The notes beneath the pieces are model-generated. The model worked only from the letters and a program-made list of their open reading frames with translations, did no database searches and was not told the origin of the DNA. This document shows, piece by piece, positions 14,963 through 54,672 of a stretch of 64,000 nt of DNA (the stretch's first letter is position 1; every line of letters begins with the position of its first letter). The translations under genes were made by a program, and so were the position numbers. The DNA comes from a virus, in the IMG/VR virus record IMGVR_UViG_3300009873_000022, positions 607 to 64,606 of that record; one strand, written 5' to 3'.

Positions 14963-15220
14963 GTGACAAAGGCTCGCATTGATTTCTTGGTGGATGGCGC
15001 ACAGCGACAGTTTCATGTGTTCCCTGGAACGACACTGACTGTTTGTTGCCTCACACTGCCAAATGGATTCTGTGTCACTGGCGAAAGCGCGGCAGCAAGT
15101 CCTGAGAATTTCGACCGTGAGATCGGTGAAAGGATTGCGCTTGAGAATGCCAAACATAAGGTCTGGGCACTCGAAGGCTACCTGCTGAAGCAGTCTCTGT
15201 ACTCGGCGTCGACGAACTGA
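14963..15220 (+). CDS. small hypothetical protein
   Basis: 85-aa ORF abutting terL. Confidence 0.35.
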   Translation: MTKARIDFLVDGAQRQFHVFPGTTLTVCCLTLPNGFCVTGESAAASPENFDREIGERIALENAKHKVWALEGYLLKQSLYSASTN

Positions 15221-19800: not shown

Positions 19801-19961
19801 ATGGAAAAGAGTTCACCACGGACAACCCCATCTGGGATGAGTACCGACCACCGAATCATTTCAACTGCCGCAGCATCCTTGTGCCAATCACGGCGGTGGA
19901 TGGTTGGGATGGCAAAGAGTCACCGGAACCGAGCCTCTCGCCGCAGGAGGGATTCAAATGA
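16800..19961 (+). CDS. portal protein (Mu gp29/DUF935-like) fused to an HExxH metallopeptidase-like insert and a C-terminal MuF/SPP1 gp7 head-morphogenesis domain
   Basis: The protein is 1053 aa. A central A/Q-rich coiled coil is present. The HExxH motif is VLAHEIGHAV, followed by EFMAEAF. The C-terminal MuF motif is NICEEMDGKEF...PPNHFNCRSILVPI. Confidence 0.75.
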   Translation: MAGTVPPIEEEPKEQPLDQVTTYDLSNLTWGFAGYRYNPDELASRRGLKIYQQMLTDEQVKAVVEFKLAAILSRGYQFVFDGSKLSPEKQEERSCLFQHILLKMRGSFMDALEGIASGREYGFSITEKVYGEVTYDGSPYVGINQLLTRDPSSFLFKTDAYGNLVEVKQQVTGQQEVIIDQSRMIHYVHAPKWDAIYGRSDLRAAHRSWYAKDNLVKLELMYLEKFGGGTAVAKRMTDDAPRSGTPDHVQLEFAIKNISSLRSIVLPKGVELEILYPNVTTQFREAITYHDLAIAKALLVPNLLGLSHTGQTGAFAQSQTQLQAFFWTLNTDANRLEECLNEQLFRDLGDQNWGDGDYPRFKFKKADIEHTKWIVATWKEMLNIKAVLPTEDDEKFLRELLEMPERDENSVILENPVELRKEEEAKKAQADALAAQQAQQQGQQDAVKKELADQKAASDAAQQDVKKLQSDLAALKVESTKVQPITVDIVRAEMEAALRKFGYNPDQPRDGHGRFGEGGGSDSGKDHETELYEKTGVRLRISTVKTDKDRVEAVSKATMEVVSSLAENPAIGTVLRRDGVTIEIVDGKTIMNEAHGTQSFASYNEATGTIKVAAGLNLSGTAATPSIGKFNVGTDFRTVLAHEIGHAVSRRIAVDALKADPNALVGAALYKSLGSSRIEKGVSGYAAKNAREFMAEAFAAYTHPGYSSSKGLPKEVEHVFELAGVGAGTRKFDTEVVPHGKLYGVPLTTFQRATMRVNFQTIEQKTNTFADSAVRNLAAIVAKAARRALGDDENMKSLLDDDPSDVAAIDVGQADKSKLRATYRDLLNQSWKLGANLANNELARARGSEFVNATAKFASLLDKASQYFDTQAFRMAGDTSDQVRKTIQQELQNGIKQGKPLTDVRVNIWNRLVTKGMTSQSAVKDVEDDDAVNEALDLLWADSEAGAVAYLNTLVRTNTFEALNEARYAQFTDPELGDFVVALRYAAVLDSSTTNICEEMDGKEFTTDNPIWDEYRPPNHFNCRSILVPITAVDGWDGKESPEPSLSPQEGFK

Positions 19962-20679: not shown

Positions 20680-20960
20680 GTCAACCATTCATTGCACGCG
20701 TTCAGCAGCTGATACAGCAGCGCACAGATATGGAGATCGTGCAGACTGCCATTGATGTGATACAGAAGAACGCACTCAAGTCTACGGCAGCTACACTCAC
20801 ACTCGATGAAGTGGCATGGCTGGCGGCATTCATTGGCAAGGCAAGTTCTGGGGCGCGAGATGCAATGATGAAACGTGACGTGGCGGTTGATGAGAATGGA
20901 ACACGTGTAATCAACATCACGGCTGATGATAGCGTGAAAGCAGCAGATGGAGCAGGCTAA
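20676..20960 (+). CDS. hypothetical protein
   Basis: ATG at 20676 overlaps the upstream stop. The track ORF 20505 start lies inside the previous gene. Confidence 0.4.
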   Translation: MSQPFIARVQQLIQQRTDMEIVQTAIDVIQKNALKSTAATLTLDEVAWLAAFIGKASSGARDAMMKRDVAVDENGTRVINITADDSVKAADGAG

Positions 20961-22015
20961 TGGCCAAACAAATCAAAGGCGCTGAGATATTCAGTATCGG
21001 AACATGGAATGGACTCACCTTCACCGGTGAAGATATCGACAGCATGGTTTCGAGCTTCGATGCTCTTAGTCTAGCTGGCCGCATTCCACTCAAGCTGTCA
21101 CATGACGGCCCTGATGAACGCTTTGACCCGTTGACCAAGCTGTCAATGGGATGGGTGCAAAGAGTTTGGCGCGAAGGAACGCGCCTCATGGCGGACATGG
21201 AAGTTCCAGACGGAGTCGCAAAACTTATCAAGGAAGGATTCTTGAAGTTCGTTTCTGTTGAGCTACTCAAGGATGTTCAGGCGAGCACGCGGATTATCCC
21301 GTGGGTCCTGGATGCAGTAGCTCTGCTGGGGTCCGAGCAACCTGCCCTCGGTGTCCTCAGGGACCTTACATCGATCGACATGTCTCGAAGAACTGCATTC
21401 CAGTTCCGTGAGCGTGCGACGTTCAGGCGGGAAGTGTCATTTGATGGAGATCGTAAGCATATGGCAGACGATATTGACAAGACAGGGCAGGAGCGCATCA
21501 AGGAGCTGGAGAAGCAGCTCGATGAGGCTCGTGTCAAGGCCGCTGAGCGTGACGTGTTCGAACGGAAGGCCAAGGATCTGGAAGAGAAGAGCAAAAACGA
21601 AAAGGTTTCTGCTCATCGCGCCAAGATCAAGGAGAAGTTCGATACGGCCGTCACGGAGAAGCGTATTCAGCCGAAGATCCGTGAGCGGTTCTACTCGCGG
21701 TTCGAAATCGACAGTGACGATGTACTCAAGATCGGGCTCGATACGGTCGATGAGTACATTGCGGAGAACCCGAATCCGCTGGCACCGCGCGTGAATACGT
21801 TCGGTTCCAACGGTGACACGGTTGCCGTCGGTGCTACGGCAGATGCCGAGGCACTGAACAAGGCGCGCGAGCTGGTCCGGGCCAATGGTGGCAACGTCAA
21901 TGATCCGGAAGCGCTCATTCGTGCCGGTATCCAGCTCTTCCAGAGGGACCGAAACCTCGCGGAACGCTACCGCAACCTCCCGGCGGACTTTGCCGCTGGC
22001 TCACTGGATCGATAG
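20960..22015 (+). CDS. putative prohead protease/scaffold (Mu gpI-like), with a coiled-coil C-terminal half
   Basis: The call rests on position between portal/MuF and capsid. The scaffold-like repeat is KELEKQLDEARVKAAERDVFERKAKDLEEK. Confidence 0.5.
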   Translation: MAKQIKGAEIFSIGTWNGLTFTGEDIDSMVSSFDALSLAGRIPLKLSHDGPDERFDPLTKLSMGWVQRVWREGTRLMADMEVPDGVAKLIKEGFLKFVSVELLKDVQASTRIIPWVLDAVALLGSEQPALGVLRDLTSIDMSRRTAFQFRERATFRREVSFDGDRKHMADDIDKTGQERIKELEKQLDEARVKAAERDVFERKAKDLEEKSKNEKVSAHRAKIKEKFDTAVTEKRIQPKIRERFYSRFEIDSDDVLKIGLDTVDEYIAENPNPLAPRVNTFGSNGDTVAVGATADAEALNKARELVRANGGNVNDPEALIRAGIQLFQRDRNLAERYRNLPADFAAGSLDR

Positions 22016-22027
22016 GAGGTCCACGAG

Positions 22028-22402
22028 ATGTCTACCGAAGGAAAGTATGACGTTATCAACGTCCTCGCCGCACAGGACCTGACTGTCGCGGATGCTATCT
22101 ATCACGCCGTCACGTTCGGTGGTACGATTGCCCCGAACACGTCGCGTGTCGCTGGCGTTCTGCGGTCGAAGGCGAAGAGCGGTGAGCAGGCTTCAGTGGT
22201 CTATCAAGGCTTCACCAAGGTGATGGTCGGTGCTGCGGTCAGCACGCTCGGCTATCCGCTGACGGTGACAGCCTCTGGCTGGTTCATTGCGGCGAGCTCT
22301 GGTGGTGCTACGGTCGGTCGTGCTCTTGCCACTGCGGCATCGGGCGACCTGATCCCGGCATTCGTGGACTTCATGACCATTCCGGCTTGGCCCGGCGTTT
22401 AA
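22028..22402 (+). CDS. DUF2190-like head decoration/cement protein
   Basis: 124-aa protein rich in G, A and V, lying directly upstream of the major capsid gene. Confidence 0.5.
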   Translation: MSTEGKYDVINVLAAQDLTVADAIYHAVTFGGTIAPNTSRVAGVLRSKAKSGEQASVVYQGFTKVMVGAAVSTLGYPLTVTASGWFIAASSGGATVGRALATAASGDLIPAFVDFMTIPAWPGV

Positions 22403-22417
22403 GGAGGCGACTGAAAT

Positions 22418-23398
22418 ATGGGTACTTCAACAGGTCGCGATCTCCATATCGACGGGTATCTGTCGGAGATCGCTTTGAACTATCGCCCTCAGGGCATGAT
22501 CGGTGACATGATTGCTCCGATCGTGAACGTGGACAAAGAAACGAACGTCTACCCGATCTTCAATCGTGGTGAAGCGTTCGCTATCGAAGACACGTCGCGG
22601 TCTCGCAGTCAGGAAGCAAGGCGCGTCACGCGCTCTGTTTCCAGCGCGAGCTACGTCGCCAAGAACTACGCTCTGGCGTACGACTTGCCGATTGAAGATC
22701 GTGCCAACATGGACGCTGCTCTGCAGTTCGAATTGGAAGCTGGCGCTGGCCGGTATCTGCAGGACAAGCTGTTCCTTGATTGGGACCGTCGTGTCCTTTC
22801 TCTGGTTGGATCTGCCTCGAACGTCGCTACCGGGTTCCTCACTGGTAGTTCGTGGACGGCGGCTTCCAATCCTGGTGACCCGATCAGCATGATCTGGAAG
22901 GCAATGGAGCAGCAGCAGTCGCTGACCGCTCAGAAGCCGAACAGTCTGTTGTTCGGTTGGCGCGCATGGAATGCGTTCCGTCGTAACGTGAACGCTCGTA
23001 ACTTCGTTACTGGCACGAACAACGGCGGCGGCGCAGTCACGCGTCAGAATGCACAGGCCGCGTTCGAAGTGGACCGACTGATTGTCGCGGGTGCATTCTA
23101 CAACACGACGAACGAAGCGCAGGCTGCGGCACTCAGCAACAATCCGCTCCATGATGCGGTTCTGCTGTACTACGCTCCCCTGTCTCCGAGCCGTGAAACC
23201 CCGAGCTTCATGTACAGCTTCCGCTGGACGAATCCGCTGCTCGGTGTCCCGATGGCTGTCACTCGCTACCCGTACGACGCTCGTCGTCAGGTGGAAGGTG
23301 TGCAGGTTCAGTACTATCAGGACGAGAAGATCACTGGGTCTGAATATGGCGCGCTTCTGCTCGGCGTCGGCTCGGCTCAGGCGAACGGCCTCACCTGA
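22418..23398 (+). CDS. major capsid protein
   Basis: 326-aa ORF after scaffold and decoration, with a strong RBS GGAGG. A terminator follows. Confidence 0.7.
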   Translation: MGTSTGRDLHIDGYLSEIALNYRPQGMIGDMIAPIVNVDKETNVYPIFNRGEAFAIEDTSRSRSQEARRVTRSVSSASYVAKNYALAYDLPIEDRANMDAALQFELEAGAGRYLQDKLFLDWDRRVLSLVGSASNVATGFLTGSSWTAASNPGDPISMIWKAMEQQQSLTAQKPNSLLFGWRAWNAFRRNVNARNFVTGTNNGGGAVTRQNAQAAFEVDRLIVAGAFYNTTNEAQAAALSNNPLHDAVLLYYAPLSPSRETPSFMYSFRWTNPLLGVPMAVTRYPYDARRQVEGVQVQYYQDEKITGSEYGALLLGVGSAQANGLT

Positions 23399-23504: not shown

Positions 23505-23798
23505 ATGAGTACCGTGAAAAAGAAGGTAGTGAAGGAGAAGTTGGTCAAGATGCCGGACTGGTTGAATGGGATCAAGCTGGTCGGTGACGTACTCGTCATT
23601 CCGACAAGTGTATTTGATGTCAGGAAGGTGACATCACAGGATGCAGTGAGTCAGAGCACTGTGTCTGTGCATTTCGAGGTGACCAAGAAGCCCACCCTCA
23701 TTACAGGAGTGGCAAGCGGGTCTATATCACCAGAAGAAATGCGCAGGTTCGCCAGCATGCTTCCCAATACTTACGCATCTCGGCCCTTTGGTCTCTGA
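23505..23798 (+). CDS. hypothetical protein
   Basis: 97-aa ORF with RBS AGGAGG. Confidence 0.45.
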   Translation: MSTVKKKVVKEKLVKMPDWLNGIKLVGDVLVIPTSVFDVRKVTSQDAVSQSTVSVHFEVTKKPTLITGVASGSISPEEMRRFASMLPNTYASRPFGL

Positions 23799-23812: not shown

Positions 23813-26800
23813 ATGGAAATCGTCATTCACAGTCTTGGCATGCCCTTCAATGGGGAAACGATCGCGAAGCGCTCGCTCGGTGGATCTGAGTCTGCGGCAT
23901 ACTATCAGGCGGTAGAGTTGGCAAAGCGAGGGCATCGTGTCACCGTATTCAGCACAATTTCTCTGCAGGAACAGGGAGAATGGGACGGTGTTCGGTATTG
24001 CAGTGCCGGAGAAGTGACACAAGAGGCTCCGCTGGGGTCTTTGTTCACGTTCTATGCGCAGCATACTCCGCATGACGTGCTCATCATTCAGCGTCACCCA
24101 ATGGCTTTCCATTGGCGCTGGAACAGTAAGATCAACATCCTTCAATTGCATGATCTCGCATTATTCCGTAGTGCGGGAATGGTAAATCATGGAATGTGGC
24201 AGGTTGACTACGTCACGTGCGTGAGCGAATGGCACAAGAAACAGGTATCTGAGGTTTACGGACTTGATCCAGACTTCGTGTCTGTGGTTCCTAATGGTGT
24301 AGACCCAGCACTGTACGTGGCCGAAGCAGATTGGAGTGGTAAGGAAAATCTGTGGGAAAACATTCAACGTGCCGCAGAGTCTGGTGAAACATTCAATATG
24401 TTGTACCAGTCACGCCCCGAACGTGGATTGGAACACCTATTGCGTCCAGGTGGCATCATGGATCGTCTGAAGGATACCAAAGCGACTCTATGGTATTGCG
24501 GGTATGATAATACCGTACCGCAGATGGTTAACTTCTATGATCAATTGAACTCGTGGGGTGAGGCACTACCGAATGTAGTGAACATTGGAGCACTGACCAA
24601 GGCGCAACTGGCTTCCGTACAGAAAGTCAGTGACTTGCTTATCTACCCAACAGAATTCGAAGAAGTTTCGTGCATCACGGCGATGGAGGCCATGCATGCC
24701 GGACTTCCACTGCTGACCAGTGAGTGTGCGGCCCTTCCGGAAACTTGCAAAGATAGCGGAACGTTTCTGATCCCACTCAAGGATGGACAGGCAGATGAGG
24801 ACGGATTTGTCAGTGCTGTGCGCGGATTTCTGAGTGGCGCAGGGCCAAAAGACAGCAAGGAAAAGCAACTTGAAGCGGCCAAGACGCGCACGTGGGTGAA
24901 TGCAGTTGATGTGTTGGAATCAGCTATCGAGGCAGCATTCAATCGTCGTCGAGGATCGGCGGCGCGTGATCTACGTCACATGATTGACCACAGTGACGCG
25001 ATGCTGGCGCAGGACCGAGAAATGGTGTATGCACCGTCCGAACCAAATGCCATCGCAGATGCGGCAAGAAATGAACTTGTAACCAAGTATGCATTCGCAA
25101 ATTCAACGGAAGCATACAAGGAACACTATGACAAACATCAGTCTAGGTACTACGATGATCACGAGGACAAGGTCATTGGTGAGGATGTTACTGGTAGCAC
25201 TCGTTTCAGGGGCGTCGCTGGGCTGATTGCCAATGAAGCAGCTAAGAAGCCGTCATTCAGGATGCTAGATTACGGATGTGCACATGGTCACTACCTGATT
25301 CCCATCGCCAAGGCTTATCCAGGATCTCGATTCACTGGTATTGATATCAGTGAACGGGCAATAGCAGCAGCTACGAAGTGGATGGTCCGTGACAATGTTT
25401 CTAATGTCCAGCTCTATCAGGGTAATCAGGATCTACTACGGGACCTTAACCGCCTGTGTCCATTCAAGTTACCCGCTCTTGGTGAGGATGCGTGGAATGT
25501 TGATCCGACCACTGGCAATGCTGTTCGAAATGTATTGAACAGGGAATCTCAGCGTGATCTGTTCGATATCATTCTTGCGGGAGAAGTCCTAGAGCATGTC
25601 GCTGACCCGTTCATGCTGCTCAGTGCGCTTCGTGATCTGTTGAAGCCTGATGGTCTCTTGATCATCACTACTCCTACAGGAAAGTGGGAATGGACAGGGC
25701 GTAGCGAGTTCCGTAAGGCTAGAGAGCATCTGTGGCATTTCGAAAAACAGGATATCCGAGACATCTGTGGCAAGAATGATGTTCAGATTCTTTGTGCCCC
25801 GGCTTCTCACGATATAACCGGTGAGGCCCTCGGATCGTGGGTCTGGGGAGTTCGACCGGTCTATCCGTTTGGTGGCATTGACATGAGGCGCAAGTTTGAA
25901 CAGCTCGCCCCTCGTGAAACAGTTTCGGCATGTTTGATTGTCAAGGACGGTGAGTCGACACTTCGCAAGTGTCTGCTATCGTTCATTGATTATGTCGATG
26001 AAATCATTGTGGCCATTGACCCAGATACGAAGGACAATACCAATGGCGTTCTACAAGAAATCATCAAAGAGTACCCGCTAGTGCCCATCAAGTCATTGTC
26101 GGGAGTGGTAGCAATGCGTGAAGGATTCGCGGCAGCACGGAATCTTACTCTCGATCACGCATGTGGCGATTGGGTATTGTGGGTAGACGCAGACGAAGAA
26201 ATCTCACAGCCTTGGGAAATGTGGAAGTATCTGCGTCCTAGCCAGCATCGCGCGTTTGGATTCAAGCAAATTCACTATTCTGCTCGCCCTGCGCAGGTAC
26301 TGACGGAAGACTTGCCGTGCCGACTCATTCGCCGTCGTGATTCTATTCGCTTTCATGGGTTTGTCCATGAACATCCAGAGGAAAAGCAGGGTGAGGCAAT
26401 CAAGTATTCCACCATTCGCGACGACATGCAGTTCTTGCACGGTGGATACGTGGACGAGGCCACTCGCCGCGCACGGTTCCGAAGAAACTTACCTCTCCTC
26501 ATGCGCGACATCAAAGAGAATCCTGACCGCAAGATCAACAAGTTCTTGTATCTTCGTGACATAGCACAGAGTCTCGCGTTTGAACACGAGCAAACAGGTG
26601 GTGTCGTTCTTGAGACACAACCTGAGCGAGCAAAAAAGGGCACCGAAATCTGGGAGAAGATGCTAGAGGATGAGAACAGTCCCACCAGAATGCTGATTGA
26701 TTCGCTTCAGTATTACTCTTTGTGTGTAGAGGTGCTAAGTGGTGGAGGAGGCATCGAAGCTGAGATATCACTTGGTTGTGCTGTTCAGGGAATCCCAAGT

Positions 26801-26914
26801 CTGGCTGCTCGCGTACAGGCAAAGGGAAGGTTCCTTACGCGAGATCATTTTTTCCGTCTGAGTAATCGTATTCAACAGGAGGCTACTAAGCACTATGAGT
26901 CAAGGTATCTTTAA
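23813..26914 (+). CDS. trifunctional glycosyltransferase (GT4/GT-B) - class I SAM methyltransferase - glycosyltransferase (GT2/GT-A) polyprotein
   Basis: The GT4 N-terminus is GGSESAAYY...GHRVTVFS. The GT4 C-terminus is EEVSCITAMEAMHAGLPLL. The methyltransferase motif I is MLDYGCAHG and the post-I motif is LLKPDGLLIIT. The GT2 domain has SACLIVKDGESTL...WVDADEEI with a DxD. Confidence 0.8.
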   Translation: MEIVIHSLGMPFNGETIAKRSLGGSESAAYYQAVELAKRGHRVTVFSTISLQEQGEWDGVRYCSAGEVTQEAPLGSLFTFYAQHTPHDVLIIQRHPMAFHWRWNSKINILQLHDLALFRSAGMVNHGMWQVDYVTCVSEWHKKQVSEVYGLDPDFVSVVPNGVDPALYVAEADWSGKENLWENIQRAAESGETFNMLYQSRPERGLEHLLRPGGIMDRLKDTKATLWYCGYDNTVPQMVNFYDQLNSWGEALPNVVNIGALTKAQLASVQKVSDLLIYPTEFEEVSCITAMEAMHAGLPLLTSECAALPETCKDSGTFLIPLKDGQADEDGFVSAVRGFLSGAGPKDSKEKQLEAAKTRTWVNAVDVLESAIEAAFNRRRGSAARDLRHMIDHSDAMLAQDREMVYAPSEPNAIADAARNELVTKYAFANSTEAYKEHYDKHQSRYYDDHEDKVIGEDVTGSTRFRGVAGLIANEAAKKPSFRMLDYGCAHGHYLIPIAKAYPGSRFTGIDISERAIAAATKWMVRDNVSNVQLYQGNQDLLRDLNRLCPFKLPALGEDAWNVDPTTGNAVRNVLNRESQRDLFDIILAGEVLEHVADPFMLLSALRDLLKPDGLLIITTPTGKWEWTGRSEFRKAREHLWHFEKQDIRDICGKNDVQILCAPASHDITGEALGSWVWGVRPVYPFGGIDMRRKFEQLAPRETVSACLIVKDGESTLRKCLLSFIDYVDEIIVAIDPDTKDNTNGVLQEIIKEYPLVPIKSLSGVVAMREGFAAARNLTLDHACGDWVLWVDADEEISQPWEMWKYLRPSQHRAFGFKQIHYSARPAQVLTEDLPCRLIRRRDSIRFHGFVHEHPEEKQGEAIKYSTIRDDMQFLHGGYVDEATRRARFRRNLPLLMRDIKENPDRKINKFLYLRDIAQSLAFEHEQTGGVVLETQPERAKKGTEIWEKMLEDENSPTRMLIDSLQYYSLCVEVLSGGGGIEAEISLGCAVQGIPSLAARVQAKGRFLTRDHFFRLSNRIQQEATKHYESRYL

Positions 26915-27452
26915 TAAGCTTCGTAAGGCAGCTGCTGAGGCACTCAGGGGCAAGGAGCCTGCTGAGTCTTCGATCCCGGTAATCGGGTTGTGGGACGTCG
27001 AGGTATTCCGTGAAGACGGTACCATTGAACGAAAGCAACTCAAGAATACCGTGACTGTCGTTGGACTGAACCGCATTGCTAATCGTGCGGTGCAGGGTAC
27101 TGGTACGTCGCCGTTCTACGTGCTCGCTATTGGCACGGCGACGGCCGCCCCTGCACTCACTGATTCACAGTCGAGCCTCGGCGAGGTTTCTCGTAAGTCT
27201 TCGACAGTGACGGGCGCTAGCGCACAGTCTCGTGAGTGGATTTTCCTCGTGGCTACATGGGGCGGGTCCGCCGATGGTATCACTTCTGTAGCACTGGCAT
27301 CTGCCGGTCTTTCCGACAATCCAAGTTCACTGGCTACGTCTGTGCTCGCTAATCGCGTGAACGGCCTCGGTGTAACGCTGGCAAACAGTGACCTTCTTTC
27401 ACTCACATGCCGAATTCGTGTTGGTTCGCACGATACGGCACACACTACCTAA
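26895..27452 (+). CDS. hypothetical protein (possible structural protein or substrate)
   Basis: 185-aa protein rich in S, T and A, lying between the glycosyltransferase polyprotein and the radical SAM gene. Confidence 0.45.
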   Translation: MSQGIFNKLRKAAAEALRGKEPAESSIPVIGLWDVEVFREDGTIERKQLKNTVTVVGLNRIANRAVQGTGTSPFYVLAIGTATAAPALTDSQSSLGEVSRKSSTVTGASAQSREWIFLVATWGGSADGITSVALASAGLSDNPSSLATSVLANRVNGLGVTLANSDLLSLTCRIRVGSHDTAHTT

Positions 27453-27462
27453 CGGAGGAACA

Positions 27463-28188
27463 GTGTTTACTCTTCGTCATATTCATCAGGTCGAGATTAC
27501 GTCGCGGTGCAATTTGCGATGCAAATACTGTGTCCATCCAAAGATGGTGCGGCCTAAGCAAGACATGAGCGAAGAGCACTTCTTATTGTCTTTGAAGTGG
27601 GCTCGGTTCTTTATGGATAGAGGAGGCCACCGAGAGCTGAATTTAGCTGGCATCGGAGAGTCGACGATGCACCCTGACTTTGTTCGCTGGTTATTCTTAG
27701 CACGAGAGCAGCTAGGAGATGACGTGAAGCTGGTACTGGCTACTAATGGGCTTCTGGTCACGGATGAACTTGCTAGGGCGATAGCTCCTGCAAGACCTCA
27801 CGTCTACGTCTCACTGCATCGCCCTGAGAAAGCAGGCCCCGCCGTGGCGGCTCTAGACAGAGTTGGAATATTAGCTGGAGTATCCAATGATCCGTCTATT
27901 GCCGCCACGGATTGGGCTGGTCAAGTCTCATATGCTGGTCTAATGACTCTACCGGGCAGACCTTGTCCGTGGGTGACGAATGGATGGGGGATTGTATTAT
28001 CTGATGGAAGGCTGACTCGCTGTTCTTTTGACGGTATTGGAGTAGGTGTGATCGGCACCATTGAGGATGATCTTGAGGAGCTGAGTACCGCTCCATACGA
28101 ACTTTGCAAGACATGCGATCAGAACGTCGGAGTTCCAGGTTTCTTTCAGCAACGTATTCACGGGGAGGAGAAAATCAATGCTGCGTAA
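27463..28188 (+). CDS. small radical SAM enzyme with a C-terminal twitch/SPASM-like Cys cluster
   Basis: The CxxxCxxC motif is SRCNLRCKYC. C-terminal cysteines lie in CPW...CSF...CKTCD. A GTG start at 27463 after GGAGGA is preferred over the track start 27388, which overlaps the upstream gene. Confidence 0.7.
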   Translation: MFTLRHIHQVEITSRCNLRCKYCVHPKMVRPKQDMSEEHFLLSLKWARFFMDRGGHRELNLAGIGESTMHPDFVRWLFLAREQLGDDVKLVLATNGLLVTDELARAIAPARPHVYVSLHRPEKAGPAVAALDRVGILAGVSNDPSIAATDWAGQVSYAGLMTLPGRPCPWVTNGWGIVLSDGRLTRCSFDGIGVGVIGTIEDDLEELSTAPYELCKTCDQNVGVPGFFQQRIHGEEKINAA

Positions 28189-28753
28189 TCTTTTGGTGTC
28201 AATGATGCTACTTCTTTGTGGAGTAGCACATGCTGGTGTAGCGAACATCTCATGGACCAATGCCACGACGAATACGGATGGTTCGCCTATCCCAACTACC
28301 TGCACGACATCGCCGTGTGGAAAGCTCGTACAGTCTGTTGTTGAGTATGGTACGTGCAATGGGACCAATGTGTTCGGTACTAAACAAGGTGAGATCACAG
28401 TGACGGCACCTGCGAACACTACTCCTGTCAATATGGTCGTAGTGCAGATGTACTGCTTCCGTGTATTTCATCGCAATGACTATACAGTAGCATCTGATAT
28501 GTCGAACGTCGGTAGCAAGGACAATGTGCCGCCGAAACCGAATGCTCCTGGTGTGATGACCATTTCAGGTCTTACAGTGTTTCAAGTGATTGGATCACCT
28601 AACAAGTTCGCACTGATTCCAGTAGGAACTGCCCCGCCAGATACGAAATGCGACGCAACTCAGTCCGTCAACGGTCGCTATGCCGTTCCTCGTGAATCAG
28701 TGTCTTGGTTTGGATCGGTACGACCGCAGGTGGTGGTCGCTGAATGTGGCTGA
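28178..28753 (+). CDS. secreted protein with a signal peptide and many N-x-S/T sequons, FN3/Ig-like
   Basis: The signal peptide is MLRNLLVSMMLLLCGVAHAG. Sequons seen are NIS, NAT, NGT and NTT. Confidence 0.5.
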   Translation: MLRNLLVSMMLLLCGVAHAGVANISWTNATTNTDGSPIPTTCTTSPCGKLVQSVVEYGTCNGTNVFGTKQGEITVTAPANTTPVNMVVVQMYCFRVFHRNDYTVASDMSNVGSKDNVPPKPNAPGVMTISGLTVFQVIGSPNKFALIPVGTAPPDTKCDATQSVNGRYAVPRESVSWFGSVRPQVVVAECG

Positions 28754-28829
28754 AAAAGCTGTGGTGGCTCCTGCTAGAGCTGCTTGGCAAAGATGGTCCT
28801 GGTACTCCTGAAAACTTTGAGGTGACGAA

Positions 28830-29135
28830 ATGAGATTCAATTGGAAAATGCCTACGACGCGCGAGAGTGGTCGCCCGCAACGTATTGAAGATCTTGCCGG
28901 ATACGATCTTCGAATGAAGGTAGAGGGCGCACCAGATTTCGTGTCCGTGTACGAGCCCGGTCCGGCAGACACGACATGCGTGCTTGATATCACGGATGTT
29001 GGCACGTACGAGTTTGAGCTCTATGCTGTCGGAAAGAACGGTAAGACAAGTCTTGCCCCCGCGCGTGCCAGCTTCGTTATCCCCGATGTCTCTGCTCCTG
29101 GTACGCCCGGTGAATTCTTAGTGACGCTGGTTTGA
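28830..29135 (+). CDS. Ig/FN3-like domain protein
   Basis: 101-aa ORF with a beta-sandwich-like composition. Confidence 0.4.
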   Translation: MRFNWKMPTTRESGRPQRIEDLAGYDLRMKVEGAPDFVSVYEPGPADTTCVLDITDVGTYEFELYAVGKNGKTSLAPARASFVIPDVSAPGTPGEFLVTLV

Positions 29136-29172: not shown

Positions 29173-29901
29173 ATGGCCTTCCGTGATTCAGTCGTAACGT
29201 CTGGAACCACCGGGGGAAGCCCGTCTGACGTGGCTGTCACTACTCCGACCATCGTCGCTGGTGACAGGCTCTACTGTTTCATTTGCGCTGACTCCCCTTC
29301 GGCAACGATTGATGACGTTCCTTCTGGATGGACGTTAATCGACTCCGCTCAAGGGGCCTCTCCTGACGGCCATCTGTACGCGCTATACGAGAAGCTCGTG
29401 GCGAGTGGGTCGGAAGGCGCGTCGCAGACATGGAGCTTCGATAGTTCGAGTGTTAGGTGGATGGCGATTATGGCTTCGTGGTCAGGACGCCACGCAACCA
29501 ACGCGCCTTCCTTCGCTACCGAAACGTACAACACGTCGTCGAATACGTCGCCTATTTCCCTGTCCGGGTCTAGTGGAACCGCTGCAGCGGGCGATGACAT
29601 CGCGCTTTTTATCGGCTACGACCAGACAGTCTCGACTGCTACTTGGACAACGGCAAGCTATTCGAGCAGCCTGACAGAGCAAGAAGATAGCAACCCGATT
29701 ATATGGCTTTCTGCGGCGCTCGCTACTCGCGATAGCGTCGGTGCTGGCGCGTTTGGCACAATAACAGCGACCGGCACCCGATCAGGAAGCGGTAATGCGG
29801 GCTATCTGATGTATGCGCTTGCCATTCCGGCAGCCCCGGGCGGCGGAAGTGACGGCGATACTGCCACGGTTGAAAAGTATAAACTGAGGATCGCAGCATG
29901 A
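29173..29901 (+). CDS. hypothetical fibre or decoration protein
   Basis: 242-aa ORF. It ends in TVEKYKLRIAA, a motif shared with the next gene. Confidence 0.45.
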   Translation: MAFRDSVVTSGTTGGSPSDVAVTTPTIVAGDRLYCFICADSPSATIDDVPSGWTLIDSAQGASPDGHLYALYEKLVASGSEGASQTWSFDSSSVRWMAIMASWSGRHATNAPSFATETYNTSSNTSPISLSGSSGTAAAGDDIALFIGYDQTVSTATWTTASYSSSLTEQEDSNPIIWLSAALATRDSVGAGAFGTITATGTRSGSGNAGYLMYALAIPAAPGGGSDGDTATVEKYKLRIAA

Positions 29902-30578
29902 GCAGAAACGTAGTAGACTCAGATACGTTCACTAGTTCAATTGACGCGAGCTGGGACAATGGTGTTGGCGGTACGCATCTTGGCGTTTGGGTGACAGGTG
30001 GGTACGTGCGCCCGAACTCGACTAGTGAAGCCGGGTACTTGATGCGCAATACTGGCACGTACGGCGCAGACCAGTACAGCCGTGTGACGCTGCAGACGCT
30101 GGCCTCTGGGGCCAATGAGCTTCATGCAGGAGTGTACAGCAACACTACCGACTATCAGAAGTACGATGCGTTCTTAATTGGCAATCCTGCTGACGTGAAG
30201 TACGGCATTTTCAAGGCCGCTGCCGGTGGAAGCGGTAACATGCTGATACAGTCAGACGGAACGAATGGAACGAGCGACATCCCCGGTGAGGCCGGTACTG
30301 CCGGTTGGATTCTGACACTGGAAGTGTGGGACAATGGCGACGGTACGCGAACGTTGAAGTTGTACACCGATGAGGGCAGTGGCGATGTGCTTCGCTTGCA
30401 AGTCGTTGATAATGGTACCATTGGTGGTGCGGTCATTACTTCTGGCCGTCCCATGTGTGGCGTTTACGCTCCAGGATCCGTTTCCAATGCGCAACTTTCG
30501 GCATGGGAAGGAGGCAATTTGACCACAGACCAAGGAGGCACAGTGGAGAAGTATCGCGTTACGAGGATCAAGGCATGA
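29898..30578 (+). CDS. hypothetical fibre or decoration protein, beta-sandwich-like
   Basis: 226-aa ORF. It ends in TVEKYRVTRIKA. Confidence 0.45.
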   Translation: MSRNVVDSDTFTSSIDASWDNGVGGTHLGVWVTGGYVRPNSTSEAGYLMRNTGTYGADQYSRVTLQTLASGANELHAGVYSNTTDYQKYDAFLIGNPADVKYGIFKAAAGGSGNMLIQSDGTNGTSDIPGEAGTAGWILTLEVWDNGDGTRTLKLYTDEGSGDVLRLQVVDNGTIGGAVITSGRPMCGVYAPGSVSNAQLSAWEGGNLTTDQGGTVEKYRVTRIKA

Positions 30579-31489
30579 CCAAGCTTCGCGTCATTCGTCG
30601 CGGTTCAAGTAACGTGTATATCCCTCCAACGGGAGGAACGGTTACGCGGCTGTTCACCGACGATTGCAGCGGCACGGACCCTGCAACGCTGTGGACTATT
30701 TCCGACGATCTTGGTAGCGGGTTGGATGCTCCGGGCGGCGAGTACGTACCCTACGCCGGGCAGGACTGGCATCTGATCGATCTGCACTACACGCAGATGG
30801 GCGTGAGCTTCCGCAACGAAGTGACGACGAAGTCGCAGGGGGCATGGAATGGTAGGACTGCATTTGACACAGAGTATTGGTACCGTCTCAGCATTAGACT
30901 ACCTGGTCCAAGTGACCCGAATGGATACCCGGAGTGGATTACCAGCTATCCAGATGCGTATTACGAAATTTTGACGCAGTGGCACGACAGTGCCCCGCGT
31001 ACTGCGGGATATAGTGCCAACCCGATTGCCACGCTATCTGTCGATTCACCAGCCGGTGCTTCTGCGCGGTGGAAGTTTCTAGCTCGCGGATATGGTGGTG
31101 GTGCTGGTGGACCAAGTGGGTTCAGCACGACTGGCAGCGTTGATCTTGGAGCATGGGCCGACGACCTCGGCACGGAAGTGGTCTTTGTATTCCGTTTTCG
31201 CTATGCATGGGCCACACAGACTGGGTTCGTCGAGGTGTGGAAGAATGGTGTCAAGATGGTATCCCAGTTTGATATGTATCTCGCTTACTATCAAGCTGAT
31301 GGATGGGCTCCGTATTGGAAAGCTGGCATTTACCATGGATGGGCAAACAGCCAGTCCGGTGCTCCGACTCCTCTTGGTCCTACGCGTCGTACGCATTTGA
31401 AGCGAGACTATCGTATGTGCACGGTAGCGGGTAATCCTGCTGTCCCCGTTGGAACTGACAATACCGGCTATCTGGATATGACAACATGA
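30575..31489 (+). CDS. putative polysaccharide lyase (PL7/alginate-lyase-like jelly-roll) depolymerase
   Basis: QWH is present as ILTQWHD, and YWKAGIYHG resembles the PL7 Q(I/V)H and YFKAGxY motifs. The start MTKLRV overlaps the upstream stop with ATGA. Confidence 0.45.
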   Translation: MTKLRVIRRGSSNVYIPPTGGTVTRLFTDDCSGTDPATLWTISDDLGSGLDAPGGEYVPYAGQDWHLIDLHYTQMGVSFRNEVTTKSQGAWNGRTAFDTEYWYRLSIRLPGPSDPNGYPEWITSYPDAYYEILTQWHDSAPRTAGYSANPIATLSVDSPAGASARWKFLARGYGGGAGGPSGFSTTGSVDLGAWADDLGTEVVFVFRFRYAWATQTGFVEVWKNGVKMVSQFDMYLAYYQADGWAPYWKAGIYHGWANSQSGAPTPLGPTRRTHLKRDYRMCTVAGNPAVPVGTDNTGYLDMTT

Positions 31490-33828
31490 CTAGCTATGTT
31501 GGAGCAGGCTTTGGCGTCACTACGGCTGTGCTACCAGCACACCAAGTGGATGACTTGATGCTCGCGTTCGCATACCGAGATGGCAGCAACACGCCACCTG
31601 GATTGTCTCCGGATGGATGGACTTCTGTAGTTAATTCAGGGGCTAACACTAATTCAATTAGACTAGGCTGGCTCAGGGCTAGCACGACTGGACATATAAG
31701 TGGAGTGTGGTCAAACGCTACGACACTGATTGTCAATGTGTATCGCCCGAATTCTGGATATCTACTCCGAGTAGGTAACTTCATAGTCAATGGTGGCGCG
31801 TCTAGTGCTGCCGTGTATCCGACGTTATCATTGCTAGATGTGAACAGCAAGTCATGGGTCGTGGCTTTCGCAGGGCATAGAAGTACAAATACTAATTTGC
31901 AGAATGCTCCAACAAGCATGACCATGCGGGCTAGTTCGGTAGATGCCACTGACGAGGGAGCTAGCTTTGACACTAATGGTGCAATGACCGCATGGAATGT
32001 GAGCAGCGTTGCGCTTGGTGGCACCGCATCAGGTTGGCGAGCCGTTGTACAAGAGATAGTAGAGTACCCTGTGAAGGTAGCTCAGGTGGAGAGCACCATC
32101 GTTCCAACCGAGCCCGGATTCACCGTCATTAATGTTGATGTAGTCAGGACGACTAATGTCCCCAGTGTGGAAGATGCGATAGCAAAGATTGGAAGATGGA
32201 TTCACAATGTAGACAGCACAATAGTTGTAACTGAAGCGTCAGTAGAGAGCACTACTGATACGACTGCTACTACAGTAGATGCCATTTCTACGGATGATAA
32301 CTATGTGAAGCTGCTTTCTAAGCTTCTAGCGGACGCTACTGTCATAATAGATGAGGTTTCGTCATCGTACATACCGGGTGGTGGCGGTGGGCCTACGGTT
32401 TCTGTACTTACAGATTTAGTCAGTATCGTAGATGAAGCATTGAGCATAGCTAGATATCTGCGCATAACTCAGGACTTGTTGACCCTAGACACTCCTGTCT
32501 TAGAAACAGACACTAGTCTGGTTGCTGTAGCTACTGATATTAGTGATGTCACTGATACTGTAACTAAGTGGCAAATTAGGCTTCTGCAGAGCGCTGCCGT
32601 TCTAGTCGATGCACTGTCTTCAGTTCTTACTGGCAGTGGTACCGTCCAGACTAAAGTTCTGGAAAGTGCGCTGGATGTGATAGATGTCTTAGTGAAGTCA
32701 CTTAGGGCATTGCGAGAGGAATCTATATCTGCAGTTTCAGAGGGACCACTCGAAAGGGTGTTTGACTACACTCAAGAGAGCAGTGTGGTATTAGACACTC
32801 CATCACTAGAGAGCTTCAGTTTCTTGGAGGCTAGGGCCTCGTCATCACCTGAAGTCAATGATGGCACAGTCAGCTTTGTGAGGTATGCGCGTGTTGCAGA
32901 GAGTTTATCTGTACTGATTGATTCGTTATCATCTTCTTTGCAACAGTCTGGAACTGTCAATACATCTGTTCTGTCATCTACTGTGACAGTAATAGACCAA
33001 CTTCTTAGAAGTTTGATGGATGTTCGAGAGGTAACTTCGGAGTTGGTGCTATCTGATTCGTCAGTCATGTGGTCTACGCTGAATAGGTTAGCTGAGTCAC
33101 TGGTAGTCTTGATCGATGAGGTAGTAAGTAGCACTATAGTTAGTGGAGGACTGTACGTCAAGACTCTTGAAGATATGATAACAGTGGTGTCTCAGATAAA
33201 CAAGATTCTAATCCTGCTGAGAGACGACAGTTCGCCTGTGACAGATAGCCCATTGATAAAGGCTCTGAGCATAGTCTCACAGAGTACAGTCGATGCAGTA
33301 TCTGAGGCAGTGACACGGCTAAGGTTCACACGCCTGTTGACCGATGAGTTAACTGCGTTCGATGATCTGGTTTACTACACACTAGGAATTCAGGTAAGAA
33401 CTCTTACCAGTGCCATCACGGTGTATGATGAGTTGGTGCAGGCTCTTTCGGCAGCTCGGCTATCTAGTGATGGCCTTCTGATAGTAGACTCTTTGTCTGG
33501 TCCACTACTTCGTGGTCGCATAATGGCTGACGACGTAATCGCATTCGATGCAGTGGTCACGACAGTGCTGCGTCAGTATGCATTCACGTCTGAGAGTCAG
33601 GTGACGCTGGACGACTCTGTTGTATCAATTCTTCGTGTTCGTAGAATACTTGATTCCATAGCTCTAACGGTAGATGACATCGTTTCAAATGTGTACCAGT
33701 TCTTTCTCACATATGGTGTCACCGTACCGAAGATATCGTTGTCTGTAGATACCATCAAGCTGCGCATGTTGCCAGCTGCAATACTAGGAATGCGCAGTGA
33801 CACCATTCGACTCAGTGTAGGAGCCTAG
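31486..33828 (+). CDS. fibre protein with internal repeats of about 45 aa
   Basis: 780-aa ORF. Three or more copies of a repeat like L(V/I)DxLSSxL..SGTV.T.VL.S...VID.L..SL lie between aa 360 and 565. Confidence 0.55.
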   Translation: MTSYVGAGFGVTTAVLPAHQVDDLMLAFAYRDGSNTPPGLSPDGWTSVVNSGANTNSIRLGWLRASTTGHISGVWSNATTLIVNVYRPNSGYLLRVGNFIVNGGASSAAVYPTLSLLDVNSKSWVVAFAGHRSTNTNLQNAPTSMTMRASSVDATDEGASFDTNGAMTAWNVSSVALGGTASGWRAVVQEIVEYPVKVAQVESTIVPTEPGFTVINVDVVRTTNVPSVEDAIAKIGRWIHNVDSTIVVTEASVESTTDTTATTVDAISTDDNYVKLLSKLLADATVIIDEVSSSYIPGGGGGPTVSVLTDLVSIVDEALSIARYLRITQDLLTLDTPVLETDTSLVAVATDISDVTDTVTKWQIRLLQSAAVLVDALSSVLTGSGTVQTKVLESALDVIDVLVKSLRALREESISAVSEGPLERVFDYTQESSVVLDTPSLESFSFLEARASSSPEVNDGTVSFVRYARVAESLSVLIDSLSSSLQQSGTVNTSVLSSTVTVIDQLLRSLMDVREVTSELVLSDSSVMWSTLNRLAESLVVLIDEVVSSTIVSGGLYVKTLEDMITVVSQINKILILLRDDSSPVTDSPLIKALSIVSQSTVDAVSEAVTRLRFTRLLTDELTAFDDLVYYTLGIQVRTLTSAITVYDELVQALSAARLSSDGLLIVDSLSGPLLRGRIMADDVIAFDAVVTTVLRQYAFTSESQVTLDDSVVSILRVRRILDSIALTVDDIVSNVYQFFLTYGVTVPKISLSVDTIKLRMLPAAILGMRSDTIRLSVGA

Positions 33829-33829: not shown

Positions 33830-34114
33830 ATGAGGATAGAAGTACATGAGCGGATCGCAGGCACTACGATTGTGCCGACATGGGTTAATTCTGGCCCTGA
33901 TCCGTCCTTCATAACCAGCATATTGCGTACCGGCAGTGAGACTGTCGTCAGTACCGCCACTCCCGTTAGCAGTGGACCCAGCAACTACTTTGCCATCCAC
34001 GCACTTCCCACGACACCGAATGTGTGGTACGTGAATGAGTGGATTGCTTACATCTCAGCCAGTACGTACGTCTCTAGACAATATGTCAAGGCAGTAAAGC
34101 CGGAGGTCTACTGA
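33830..34114 (+). CDS. hypothetical protein
   Basis: 94-aa ORF. Confidence 0.35.
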   Translation: MRIEVHERIAGTTIVPTWVNSGPDPSFITSILRTGSETVVSTATPVSSGPSNYFAIHALPTTPNVWYVNEWIAYISASTYVSRQYVKAVKPEVY

Positions 34115-34115
34115 T

Positions 34116-34541
34116 ATGGGCGCGTATACGAATTGGGGATTGGTGGCTGGTAGATATCCTACCGTGGCTACCTCTAGGACAGAGGCCGATGCTGAGGACA
34201 ATTTCATTGCAGGAGCCGAGGGAGAAATCAATTCAAGGTTGGCTACGAAGTACACTACTCCGTTCTCAACTGTTCCCGCTCTAATAACTGATTTGGCAAC
34301 AGATCTGACGTACGTCAAATTGCGTCACTACACCAAGGATGTCAAGGGTGTCGCGGACCACATAGAATCTATCTTCAAGGGGCTCCTTGATGGTACAATA
34401 ACCCTGACTGAAGGTGAGTCATCCGGAGGCAACGAGGCTTATATCAATGAGACCTACCATTCTGCCTTTGGGCTTGACGACCCTGTAGAATGGAGTAGAG
34501 ATCAGGATCAGCTTGCTGAAGAGTCGGATGCGAGGCTCTGA
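34116..34541 (+). CDS. putative head-tail connector/adaptor
   Basis: The call rests on position, and the protein is 141 aa. Confidence 0.4.
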   Translation: MGAYTNWGLVAGRYPTVATSRTEADAEDNFIAGAEGEINSRLATKYTTPFSTVPALITDLATDLTYVKLRHYTKDVKGVADHIESIFKGLLDGTITLTEGESSGGNEAYINETYHSAFGLDDPVEWSRDQDQLAEESDARL

Positions 34542-54664: not shown

Positions 54665-54672
54665 GAGTGCTC

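Follow-up and report, generated by a model that had tools for sequence, protein, structure and literature searches.

Chlorovirus PBCV-1 encodes A064R, a protein of 638 aa composed of a GT-A rhamnosyltransferase (D1), a second rhamnosyltransferase (D2) and a class I methyltransferase (D3). The enzyme assembles the terminal portion of the glycan carried by the viral major capsid protein and also methylates it. A stand-alone chlorovirus methyltransferase, A061L, adds a further methyl group to the same glycan part (PMC9614988). Mycobacteriophages are described as glycosylating the C-termini of capsid and tail-tube proteins in the cytoplasm with glycosyltransferases of their own (PMC12619734, PMC12363180). 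Examples are Che8 gp110, Corndog gp38 and Myrna, and the glycan shields the virions (Freeman et al., 2023, as quoted in PMC12363180 and PMC12619734). Among cellular enzymes, GmaR is the O-GlcNAc transferase of Listeria flagellin, and SunS and ThuS are S/O-glycosyltransferases of glycocins. These enzymes are soluble and transfer directly from a nucleotide sugar to a protein or peptide.

The window analysed here comprises 64,000 nucleotides of the IMG/VR virus record IMGVR_UViG_3300009873_000022 (positions 607 to 64,606). The head module and its neighbouring genes are encoded on the plus strand. A head maturation protease/scaffold (20960..22015; phrog_976, E 7e-21), whose place in the gene order is kept in related loci, is followed by a cement or decoration-type head protein of 124 aa (22028..22402; phrog_673, E 1.5e-12) found in 72 related loci. 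The match of the latter to Pfam Phage_cement_2 stays under the curated cutoff (E 7e-4). The major capsid protein (MCP) of 326 aa (22418..23398) matches phrog_1005 (E 3e-57). The slot behind its gene is occupied by a 97-aa ORF (23505..23798) without a family match in Pfam or PHROGs; relatives fill this slot with other small, unrelated ORFs. The gene of a tri-domain fusion enzyme of 1033 aa (23813..26914) starts 14 nt past the end of this ORF, so that it follows the capsid gene as the initial annotation had stated. The genes of the late operon are tightly packed, with gaps of -20 to +106 nt.

The initial annotation had recognized a GT-B glycosyltransferase, a methyltransferase and a GT-A glycosyltransferase with a DAD motif in the fusion enzyme, and Pfam domains and invariant motifs bear this out. 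Residues 23-166 match Glyco_transf_4 (PF13439, 50 bits, cutoff 28.5), and residues 217-326 match Glyco_trans_1_4 (PF13692, 32.7 bits, cutoff 27) and Glycos_transf_1 (PF00534, 26.9 bits, cutoff 26.4). Methyltransf_23 covers residues 464-660 (PF13489, E 3e-20, 73 bits, cutoff 27), and Glycos_transf_2 residues 705-801 (PF00535, E 2.6e-11, 44.2 bits, cutoff 23.3). The layout comprises a GT4 domain of the GT-B type (~1-380), a class I SAM methyltransferase (~450-660), a GmaR/SunS-like GT2 domain of the GT-A type (~690-915) and a C-terminal helical region up to residue 1033. Across 24 homologues with 52-62% identity, no variation occurs in the EX7E motif of the GT4 domain (E284..E292), in motif I of the methyltransferase (D486-YGCAHG) and in the DAD motif of the GT2 domain (D792-A-D794). 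Pfam scores and motifs place the three domains in the retaining GT4, the class I SAM-dependent methyltransferase and the inverting GT2 families, respectively. Full-length homologues form more than 120 clusters. Some carry inteins, inside the GT4 EX7E motif or inside the GT2 domain, as would be predicted for a highly conserved, needed gene.

A profile of the 24 homologues obtained 49 matches in the PDB. The best match of the GT2 domain was GmaR (81 bits, E 5e-22), followed by SunS (66 bits, E 2e-17) and a ThuS-like enzyme (50 bits), while the next GT-A enzyme reached 33 bits. Residues 8-201 of the 204 residues of GmaR were aligned, including the DxD motif (GDWILWLDADEEV vs GDWIVAIDADECV). The matches to GmaR and SunS span the catalytic GT-A domain only, leaving the peptide-binding parts of both unmatched. 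The top NCBIfam model was the SunS family TIGR04195, with 46.3 bits against a cutoff of 350 and model positions 54-268 of 421. Membership in this family was rejected, as the match is confined to the catalytic domain, and the sequence identifies the fusion enzyme as a relative rather than a member. The GT4 domain matched an MshA-like enzyme (1.5e-13) and others of the MshA, RfaG and GlgA type. The methyltransferase domain matched OvsM (3e-14); the nearest solved structures, OvsM, OvoM and PKMT1, are small-molecule or protein N-methyltransferases.

Protease, cement protein, capsid protein and fusion enzyme form an invariant gene block in this order. The MCP gene ends less than 3 kb upstream of the fusion gene in 61 of 63 full-length loci. 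A scan seeded with the MCP, and hence unbiased as to the presence of the fusion enzyme, located the enzyme downstream in 41 of 42 loci. Its gene belongs to the core of the head genes in a large lineage of uncultivated siphophages known from metagenomes. A variable cassette follows, bounded downstream by a conserved 94-aa protein (family-7, 36 loci) and the head-tail adaptor (together 33830..34541). The adaptor, a 141-aa protein at 34116-34541, matches phrog_195, and its homologues carry Pfam Phage_Mu_Gp36. In 10 of 69 loci the fusion gene leads directly to the adaptor, without any of the accessory genes described below (p185, fibre, radical SAM), so that head proteins are its sole constant partners. 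No phage locus lacks the protease, the cement protein or the MCP, and this holds for no other partner. Three homologues (L007, L008, L015) lie in non-phage chromosomal surroundings, indicating that the enzyme needs no capsid-protein neighbour. Some related loci harbor extra stand-alone methyltransferases. Neither the core status of the fusion enzyme nor the chlorovirus precedent had been noticed in the initial annotation.

The position in the head operon, the conservation throughout the lineage and a GT2 domain most similar to protein/peptide glycosyltransferases make virion glycosylation the best-supported reading of these sequences. The fusion enzyme is proposed to be a self-contained glycan builder of the head module, most likely glycosylating a virion protein in the cytoplasm (probability roughly 0.55) and most likely giving the virus particle a coat made of a methylated sugar chain. 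Its synthesis would be late and coincide with that of the capsid proteins. Initially, the DxD-dependent C-terminal GT-A domain would attach a sugar from a host nucleotide sugar to a Ser/Thr of a head protein. Subsequently, the N-terminal GT4 domain (GT-B, EX7E) would lengthen the glycan, and the central class I SAM methyltransferase would methylate and perhaps cap it. Donor sugars and the order of steps are inferred, and O-methylation of the sugar by the methyltransferase domain is an assumption. About 40% of these phages supplement the module with one small radical SAM enzyme of the predicted twitch type or with two of them, which probably serve further tailoring, as do the stand-alone methyltransferases of some phages.

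Glycosyltransferases of the GT4 and GT2 families are standard parts of polysaccharide synthesis, and the MshA, RfaG and GlgA types matched by the GT4 domain fit an activity, late in infection, on the LPS, the capsule or some other surface glycan of the host envelope rather than on virion proteins. Receptors could be masked against the loss of progeny on debris, or superinfection could be blocked. The homologues on bacterial chromosomes without phage genes point in the same direction, as does the JGI label of the homologues, 'glycosyltransferase involved in cell wall biosynthesis'. Phage genes for the remodelling of host surface glycans are, however, usually accessory and located near the integration or lysogeny region, whereas the fusion gene is core and lies between the capsid and head-tail connector genes. 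No membrane segment, flippase, polymerase or lipid-carrier enzyme was found alongside in the loci, and the GT2 domain resembles soluble glycosyltransferases of proteins and peptides more closely than it does generic GT2 enzymes. An envelope target is considered unlikely. Virion-protein glycosylation remains the best reading because the GT2 domain is closest to GmaR, SunS and ThuS.

DNA is a frequent target of phage glycosyltransferases (PMC12619734; bioRxiv 10.1101/2023.12.21.572611), and this phage hypermodifies its DNA, as shown by a gene cluster at 50631-55662 that encodes a 5-hmdU kinase together with a TAGT-like glycosyltransferase and a radical SAM-SPASM protein. Base glycosylation and methylation by the fusion enzyme ahead of packaging is nevertheless very improbable. 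The DNA-modification cluster is separate, lies on the other strand and has a glycosyltransferase and a radical SAM enzyme of its own, while the fusion gene is located in the head operon. None of the fusion-enzyme domains matched the TAGT or T4 AGT/BGT families in Pfam or in the PDB profile search.

For virion glycosylation, the MCP is the leading candidate acceptor because protease, cement protein and MCP alone are found in every phage locus. Its C-terminal tail, ...GVGSAQANGLT, is by inference the leading candidate site. The MCPs of phages with the fusion enzyme end in ...VNSST, ...VTSST or ...GVGSAQANGLT, and that of KPP23, a distant relative without the enzyme, ends in ...AGIVQ. The C-terminal Ser motif varies, two MCPs (L120 and L126) ending in ...SCA, and it may simply be structural. 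The cement protein is another candidate. Where present, p185 is a possible second acceptor.

The p185 gene (26895..27452) overlaps the fusion-enzyme stop by 20 nt and is translationally coupled. Its product of 185 aa contains 34% S+T+A, in line with the S/T/A-rich protein noted earlier at this place, and ends in a disordered, conserved tail with the motif GSHDxxH(S/T)T. Its single Cys is unconserved. It is the next gene after the fusion enzyme in 52 of 69 loci and is accessory. A fibre/baseplate anchor-domain fold and the co-occurrence with a fibre gene in related loci indicate that p185 is a structural, virion fibre-anchor-like part, which could also be a modification substrate. The fibre-like protein of 780 aa (31486..33828; phrog_36177, E 2.6e-27; phrog_13352, 'minor tail protein') belongs to a family of 45 loci that travels with p185. 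Its gene falls outside the interval initially annotated (23813-29135).

Two further ORFs had been described as FN3/Ig-like, for which Pfam, NCBIfam, PHROGs and PDB sequence searches gave no support. The first, p191 (28178..28753; 191 aa, 7 Cys), has a Sec-like, hydrophobic N-terminus ending in AHA. Four N-x-S/T sequons are present, but sequon richness is at chance level (mean of 2.36 in composition shuffles, P = 0.19). No family match was found in Pfam, PHROGs or NCBIfam, and the PDB sequence search gave only a weak lectin match (E 0.015). The family occurs in 7 loci only, as sporadic cargo and not as a conserved module member. The second, p101 (28830..29135; 101 aa), is an orphan ORF without family assignment; it had no match in Pfam, PHROGs, NCBIfam or PDB and was not detected in related loci. 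Bacterial N-linked glycosylation of the PglB/HMW1C type was considered and rejected, since the scanned proteins of the module and its surroundings include no such enzyme and the p191 sequons do not exceed chance.

The radical SAM enzyme of 241 aa (27463..28188) starts at ATG 27463, the same point as its homologues, and matches PF04055 (E 2.7e-13, 50.9 bits, cutoff 29.5), which places it in the superfamily. The cluster motif C16-x3-C20-x2-C23, the C-terminal residues C168/C187/C215/C218 and the signature G182-x4-C187 are invariant in 30 homologues. Enzymes of the twitch/SPASM subclass bind one (twitch) or two (SPASM) auxiliary [4Fe-4S] clusters through a C-terminal domain with a CX(n)GX4C signature. 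BtrN, ChlB, anSME and SkfB, all twitch/SPASM enzymes, are the top fold matches, while the Pfam SPASM model (PF13186) gave no match. A twitch-type enzyme with a BtrN-like fold and putative cluster binding is predicted, in agreement with the four C-terminal Cys and BtrN likeness proposed at the outset. It could abstract a hydrogen atom from the glycan, as in the sugar-carbinol oxidation of BtrN and SpeY, or from a protein side chain.

Protein maturation independent of any glycan, by an anSME-, SkfB-, CteB-, SuiB- or epimerase-like reaction, is a possible if less probable alternative concerning the radical SAM step only. It would introduce a cross-link, a formylglycine or a D-residue into a head or fibre protein. 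The best NCBIfam matches are SPASM-type protein/peptide maturases, none reaching a curated family cutoff, and the gene is surrounded by structural genes, in some loci lying upstream of the protease gene and apart from the glycosyltransferase. MCP and cement protein, however, contain no Cys and that of p185 is unconserved, so that Cys thioether or Cys-type formylglycine chemistry is unlikely on these proteins. Neither a RiPP recognition element nor a small precursor gene is conserved beside the radical SAM gene. The best matches in sequence (SpeY) and fold (BtrN) are both carbinol dehydrogenases, a type that oxidizes a secondary alcohol of a sugar or cyclitol, and the gene co-occurs with typical glycan-tailoring enzymes, namely extra methyltransferases. 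The radical SAM enzyme, a probable tailoring enzyme, is itself accessory. Homologues occur in the same head module, but in only about 40% of the loci, at varying positions, sometimes as two paralogues and without association with p185. The view of 23813-29135 as one coupled system does not hold: the radical SAM gene changes its place within the module and is missing from about 60% of the related head modules, p191 and p101 are no conserved parts, and p185 is structural.

In 50,697 INPHARED phage records, tblastn detected no full-length relative of the fusion enzyme (best coverage 34%), and no paper on such a fusion in phages was found. As far as checked, the fusion is new for phages outside actinophages, as the initial annotation had supposed. 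A methylated sugar coat on the virion is barely documented in phages beyond the mycobacterial ones. It is conceivable, though doubtful, that a whole and widespread environmental siphophage lineage obligatorily sugar-coats its capsid by a single modular GT-MT-GT enzyme whose conservation equals that of the capsid protein, with subsets diversifying the glycan or cross-linking the shell by dedicated miniature twitch radical SAM enzymes. This would represent the first radical SAM chemistry on the surface of a virus particle.

Multidomain enzymes with methyltransferase and glycosyltransferase parts are known from cells. WsaE of Geobacillus stearothermophilus is a methyl-rhamnosyltransferase of the S-layer glycan, and WbdA/WbdD follow the polymerase-terminator logic of O-antigen synthesis; both systems act on lipid-linked intermediates. 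A methyl-capped glycan for a surface protein lattice provides a lead from these systems. The radical SAM enzyme resembles BtrN (~250 aa), SpeY and anSME in size, partial TIM-barrel core, short C-terminal Cys-rich domain, G-x4-C signature and one auxiliary cluster, predicted here, but differs in identity (18-21%) and in its location in a phage head module. Unlike GmaR, SunS and ThuS, the fusion GT-A is joined to a GT4 and a methyltransferase domain, and the homology covers the catalytic domain only. Mycobacteriophages employ separate single-domain enzymes in particular clusters with actinobacterial hosts, without a fused methyltransferase or a radical SAM enzyme, whereas the fusion enzyme is core throughout its lineage. 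Head-operon context and core status are the contextual indications of such virion self-glycosylation here. A064R is a close functional precedent by analogy. Both enzymes are viral single polypeptides that combine two glycosyltransferase domains with a single SAM methyltransferase domain, and the stand-alone methyltransferases in some loci recall A061L. The order of domains and their families differ (GT-GT-MT without GT4 vs GT-MT-GT). A relationship in sequence was not observed, with no A064R chain among the 49 PDB profile matches. A064R extends an N-glycan with proven activity in a eukaryotic giant virus, whereas the activity of the fusion enzyme is predicted and belongs to a tailed phage.

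The structural module of the window, a segment of a phage genome, lies on the plus strand at about 14.2-44.6 kb. It comprises a terminase (15220-16800), a 1053-aa portal/Mu-F fusion (16800-19961), a head protease (20960-22015), a cement-type protein (22028-22402) and the major capsid protein (MCP; 22418-23398). The fusion has a portal domain at residues 15-461 and a Mu-F/SPP1 gp7-like minor head domain at about 860-1035; in relatives, Portal_Mu and Phage_Mu_F occur together on one product of about 790 aa. Genes for a head-tail adaptor, a tail completion protein, the tube, the tape measure and a lambda-J-like tip follow further 3' on the same strand. The site of interest is located between the MCP and the connector genes, and all ORFs of the initial annotation were recovered at their positions. 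A scan of the window for tRNA genes yielded none. A Gram-negative host is suggested solely by MAG bin labels and the lambda-J-like central tail fibre. Just past the tail and lysis region, the minus strand encodes an SPFH/Band 7 protein (45651-46610) and a DnaJ-domain protein (46618-47259).

A 1033-aa polypeptide is encoded at 23813-26914. Its description as a fusion of a GT-B glycosyltransferase, a class I methyltransferase and a GT-A glycosyltransferase with a DAD motif is borne out by Pfam matches above the curated cutoffs: Glyco_transf_4 plus Glycos_transf_1 / Glyco_trans_1_4 (residues 23-326), several class I methyltransferase families (464-660, best E-value 3e-20) and Glycos_transf_2 (705-801). 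The GT4 EX7E pair (E284, E292), the methyltransferase motif I (D486-YGCAHG) and the GT2 DAD motif (D792, D794) are invariant in an alignment of 24 homologues sharing 52-62% identity, which argues that all three activities are under selection. Inteins interrupt four homologues (P0054, P0070, P0084, P0107). Three of them carry the insertion exactly within the EX7E motif, after S286 and with C287 as +1 residue; the fourth has its intein in the GT2 domain, near residues 790-849. Such placement is typical for conserved, needed genes. A profile of the 24 homologues was searched against PDB sequences. The GT2 domain matched best to GmaR, the flagellin O-GlcNAc transferase of Listeria (E-value 5e-22, 81 bits, entire catalytic domain aligned), followed by SunS (2e-17) and a ThuS-like enzyme (8e-13), while the next GT-A enzyme reached just 33 bits. 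MshA-like retaining enzymes were matched by the GT4 domain, OvsM and OvoM by the methyltransferase domain. The top NCBIfam model, the SunS family, scored 46 bits against a cutoff of 350 bits. By sequence, the GT2 domain is a relative of protein and peptide glycosyltransferases that stands outside the SunS family proper.

Full-length homologues of the tri-domain enzyme form more than 120 clusters in a large protein database (49-61% identity, contigs of 30-64 kb), and at least 205 relatives are present in IMG/VR. Full-length copies in GTDB genomes are on MAG contigs only. None of the 50,697 deposited phage genomes in INPHARED bears the fusion; protein searches of this collection returned single-domain matches with a coverage of at most 34%, and it holds no DNA near-identical to the window. 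For a synteny survey, the head proteins of the window were compared with the ORFs of 153 fetched loci, and counts were made on 86 full-length loci. The MCP gene ends within 3 kb upstream of the enzyme in 61 of the 63 loci whose upstream flank spans 3 kb or more, and all 61 keep the order protease, cement protein, MCP, enzyme. Among 69 loci with at least 1 kb downstream, the enzyme gene is directly followed by a homologue of the 185-aa protein p185 in 52 and by the head-tail adaptor in 10. In relatives, the region from the enzyme or p185 up to the pair of a 94-aa protein and the adaptor (33830-34541 in the window) forms a variable cassette that measures 0-8 kb. For a second scan, unbiased for the enzyme, an MCP alignment served as the seed. 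Of 42 loci with sufficient flank, 41 have the enzyme downstream of the MCP, and the remaining one ends inside radical SAM genes. The enzyme therefore belongs to the core of the head module in this MCP lineage.

Three full-length tri-domain homologues are more distant (36-38% identity; L007, 9995-13036; L008, 5105-8377; L015, 2018-5380). The first two have a long upstream flank and lie amid ordinary bacterial genes (PanE, FAD-linked oxidase, HicAB pairs), in L007 a ketopantoate reductase, a xylose-isomerase-like TIM barrel, an FAD-linked oxidase and two HicAB pairs. The third copy probably has a non-phage chromosomal context as well. Thus, the fusion exists outside phage heads too. For the phage enzyme, modification of envelope polysaccharide is an improbable alternative. 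The MAG CAZOXD01, source of a chromosomal copy, also harbors a phage-type copy on the 117-kb contig CAZOXD010000001.1, possibly a prophage.

From sequence relationships and analogy, we favor cytoplasmic glycosylation of a head protein as the role of the phage enzyme. Protease, cement protein, MCP and enzyme represent the constant gene set, and the domain of the initiating type is similar to soluble enzymes that transfer sugars directly onto proteins. Capsid glycosylation is also established as a phage-encoded process in mycobacteriophages (PMC12363180, PMC12619734) and as a virus-encoded process in chlorovirus (PMC9614988). The GT2 domain would initiate on Ser/Thr of the head protein, the GT4 domain would then extend the glycan, and the methyltransferase domain would methylate it. 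Acceptor, donor and chemistry alike are what we infer, with the MCP as the most economical candidate acceptor. The MCPs of enzyme-bearing phages terminate in short Ser-containing tails (...VNSST, ...VTSST, ...GVGSAQANGLT; in fuller form ...LLLGVGSAQANGLT and ...FLLTAVNSST), which extend further than the MCP of KPP23, a distant relative that lacks the enzyme. They echo the C-terminal glycosylation sites of mycobacteriophages; since the tail motif is not invariant, the resemblance is suggestive only. A DNA substrate for the tri-domain enzyme is very improbable. The window phage probably carries hypermodified thymidine, judging from gene content. On the minus strand, 50631-55662 is occupied by a thymidine (5-hmdU) DNA hypermodification cluster. 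Its genes encode a thymidylate-synthase-like product (50631-51665), another radical SAM enzyme, larger than the first and equipped with a Pfam SPASM domain (51638-52648), a 342-aa protein of no assigned function, a protein resembling TET-associated glycosyltransferases (53789-54664) and a 5-hmdU DNA kinase (54673-55662, E-value 3e-61).

The p185 ORF (26895-27452) overlaps the enzyme stop codon by 20 nt. Its product has hundreds of homologues and matches a PHROG annotated as tail fibre. An AF2 model (pLDDT 78) consists of an N-terminal helix, a beta-sandwich and a disordered, conserved tail; its fold matches the anchor domains of fibres or baseplates. The tail motif R-x-R-x-GSH(D/N) is extended to ...HST or ...HTT in the clade of the window, where p185 ends in ...RVGSHDTAHTT. 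A gene for a fibre-like protein resembling p780 (31486-33828) co-occurs with p185 in 19 of 20 loci. Fold, PHROG match and co-occurrence characterize p185 as a structural fibre-anchor protein. A role as obligatory enzyme substrate was rejected on account of this fold and of at least 10 loci lacking p185; as a secondary acceptor, p185 may be glycosylated on its floppy Ser/Thr tail.

The radical SAM enzyme of the head module starts at ATG 27463 (27463-28188, 241 aa), where its homologues start as well. These form more than 1000 clusters of 225-255 aa with about 60% identity. C16/C20/C23, C168/C187/C215/C218 and G182-x4-C187 are invariant. The twitch, BtrN-like assignment of the initial annotation is a fair description: BtrN scored best by fold (16.4), ahead of ChlB (15.9), anSME (14.9), SkfB (14.0), SuiB (13.6), CteB (13.5), MoaA (13.5) and BlsE (13.3), and the best PDB match by sequence is SpeY, a twitch radical SAM dehydrogenase. 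Judged by these scores, relatives that act on sugars and relatives that act on proteins cannot be told apart, and the two substrate types are about equally likely. Homologues are located in the same head module at varying positions, before the protease, between MCP and enzyme, or after p185. The suggested obligatory coupling to the tri-domain enzyme or p185 does not hold: a radical SAM gene occurs anywhere in the locus in 33 of 86 loci, and its presence is independent of p185 (2 x 2 table, 7/13/7/7). A protein maturase acting independently of the glycan is a possible alternative role. MCP and cement protein have no cysteine and the single cysteine of p185 is not conserved, which makes Cys-based thioether or Cys-type formylglycine chemistry on these proteins less probable; sactipeptide-like thioether cross-linking of the cysteine-free capsid proteins is unlikely.

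A second, paralogous twitch radical SAM gene was found in 15 loci, among them L003, L004, L074, L085, L086, L095, L097, L098, L106, L116, L117, L147, L150 and L156. Its product (about 229 aa, motif REIHEIELSSxCNLACxYCPHP) adjoins a window-type enzyme. Extra stand-alone class I methyltransferases adjoin in a few loci with paralogous pairs; L147 has one between its two radical SAM genes. Two stand-alone methyltransferases are encoded between MCP and enzyme in L134 and L135. A protein family adjoining the radical SAM gene in L112 and L116 (f34, 174-179 aa) appeared sulfotransferase-like by eye and had no Pfam match. We regard the radical SAM enzymes and the additional methyltransferases as probable optional tailoring enzymes.

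The p191 gene (28178-28753) lies in the middle of the structural operon and overlaps the radical SAM stop by 11 nt. The protein has 7 Cys and a Sec-type signal peptide (MLRNLLVSMMLLLCGVAHA/G); export is unexpected for the product of a gene located among virion genes. N-glycosylation of sequon-rich proteins had been considered. The four N-x-S/T sequons of p191 are at chance level (mean of 2.36 in shuffles of its own sequence, P = 0.19 for at least four), and neither an N-glycosylation enzyme nor an oligosaccharyltransferase was found, so this proposal was dropped. The p191 family is confined to 7 loci, and the member in L004 has a carbohydrate-binding Malectin domain. p101 (28830-29135) has no homologues in related loci. 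An FN3/Ig assignment of both proteins lacks support at the sequence level, as Pfam, PHROGs, NCBIfam and PDB returned no family or solved-structure match. Three consecutive orphan ORFs with 4-nt overlaps follow at 29173-31489 (p242, p226 and p304; 242, 226 and about 304 aa), without family match or homologue in related loci. BLASTP detected no paralogy among p191, p101, the three orphans and p780.

If the enzyme acts as sequence and position suggest, capsid glycosylation would be a built-in, lineage-defining trait of hundreds of uncultivated phages from many environments. Enzyme-bearing phages were binned with MAGs of Gammaproteobacteria, Flavobacteriaceae, SAR324, Zixibacteria and Desulfocapsa. 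It would matter for particle stability, for adsorption to surfaces and mucus, for grazing, and for how defence or immune systems recognize these phages. The enzyme is a compact putative glycan synthase with three activities, amenable to tests in E. coli. With about 230 aa, the twitch radical SAM enzymes rank with the smallest members of their class, and their defined set of genomic partners offers a tractable path to a new radical SAM reaction.

A literature search retrieved no paper on the tri-domain fusion or on a head-module radical SAM enzyme. To our knowledge, mycobacteriophages are essentially the only phages in which the phage's own enzymes have been demonstrated to glycosylate the virion; there, the modification alters antibody recognition. 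This system is the closest phage precedent; in contrast to the fusion, its enzymes are separate and not core genes. The closest functional precedent is A064R of PBCV-1, which combines a pair of glycosyltransferase domains with a methyltransferase domain in one polypeptide. A064R completes and methylates the MCP glycan with the help of a stand-alone methyltransferase. Domain order and domain families differ from those of the phage enzyme, and a sequence relation was not detectable in the PDB profile search. Viral self-glycosylation of the capsid is known in kind. Notable here are the enzyme as a core gene across a large uncultivated phage lineage and its association with miniature twitch radical SAM enzymes.
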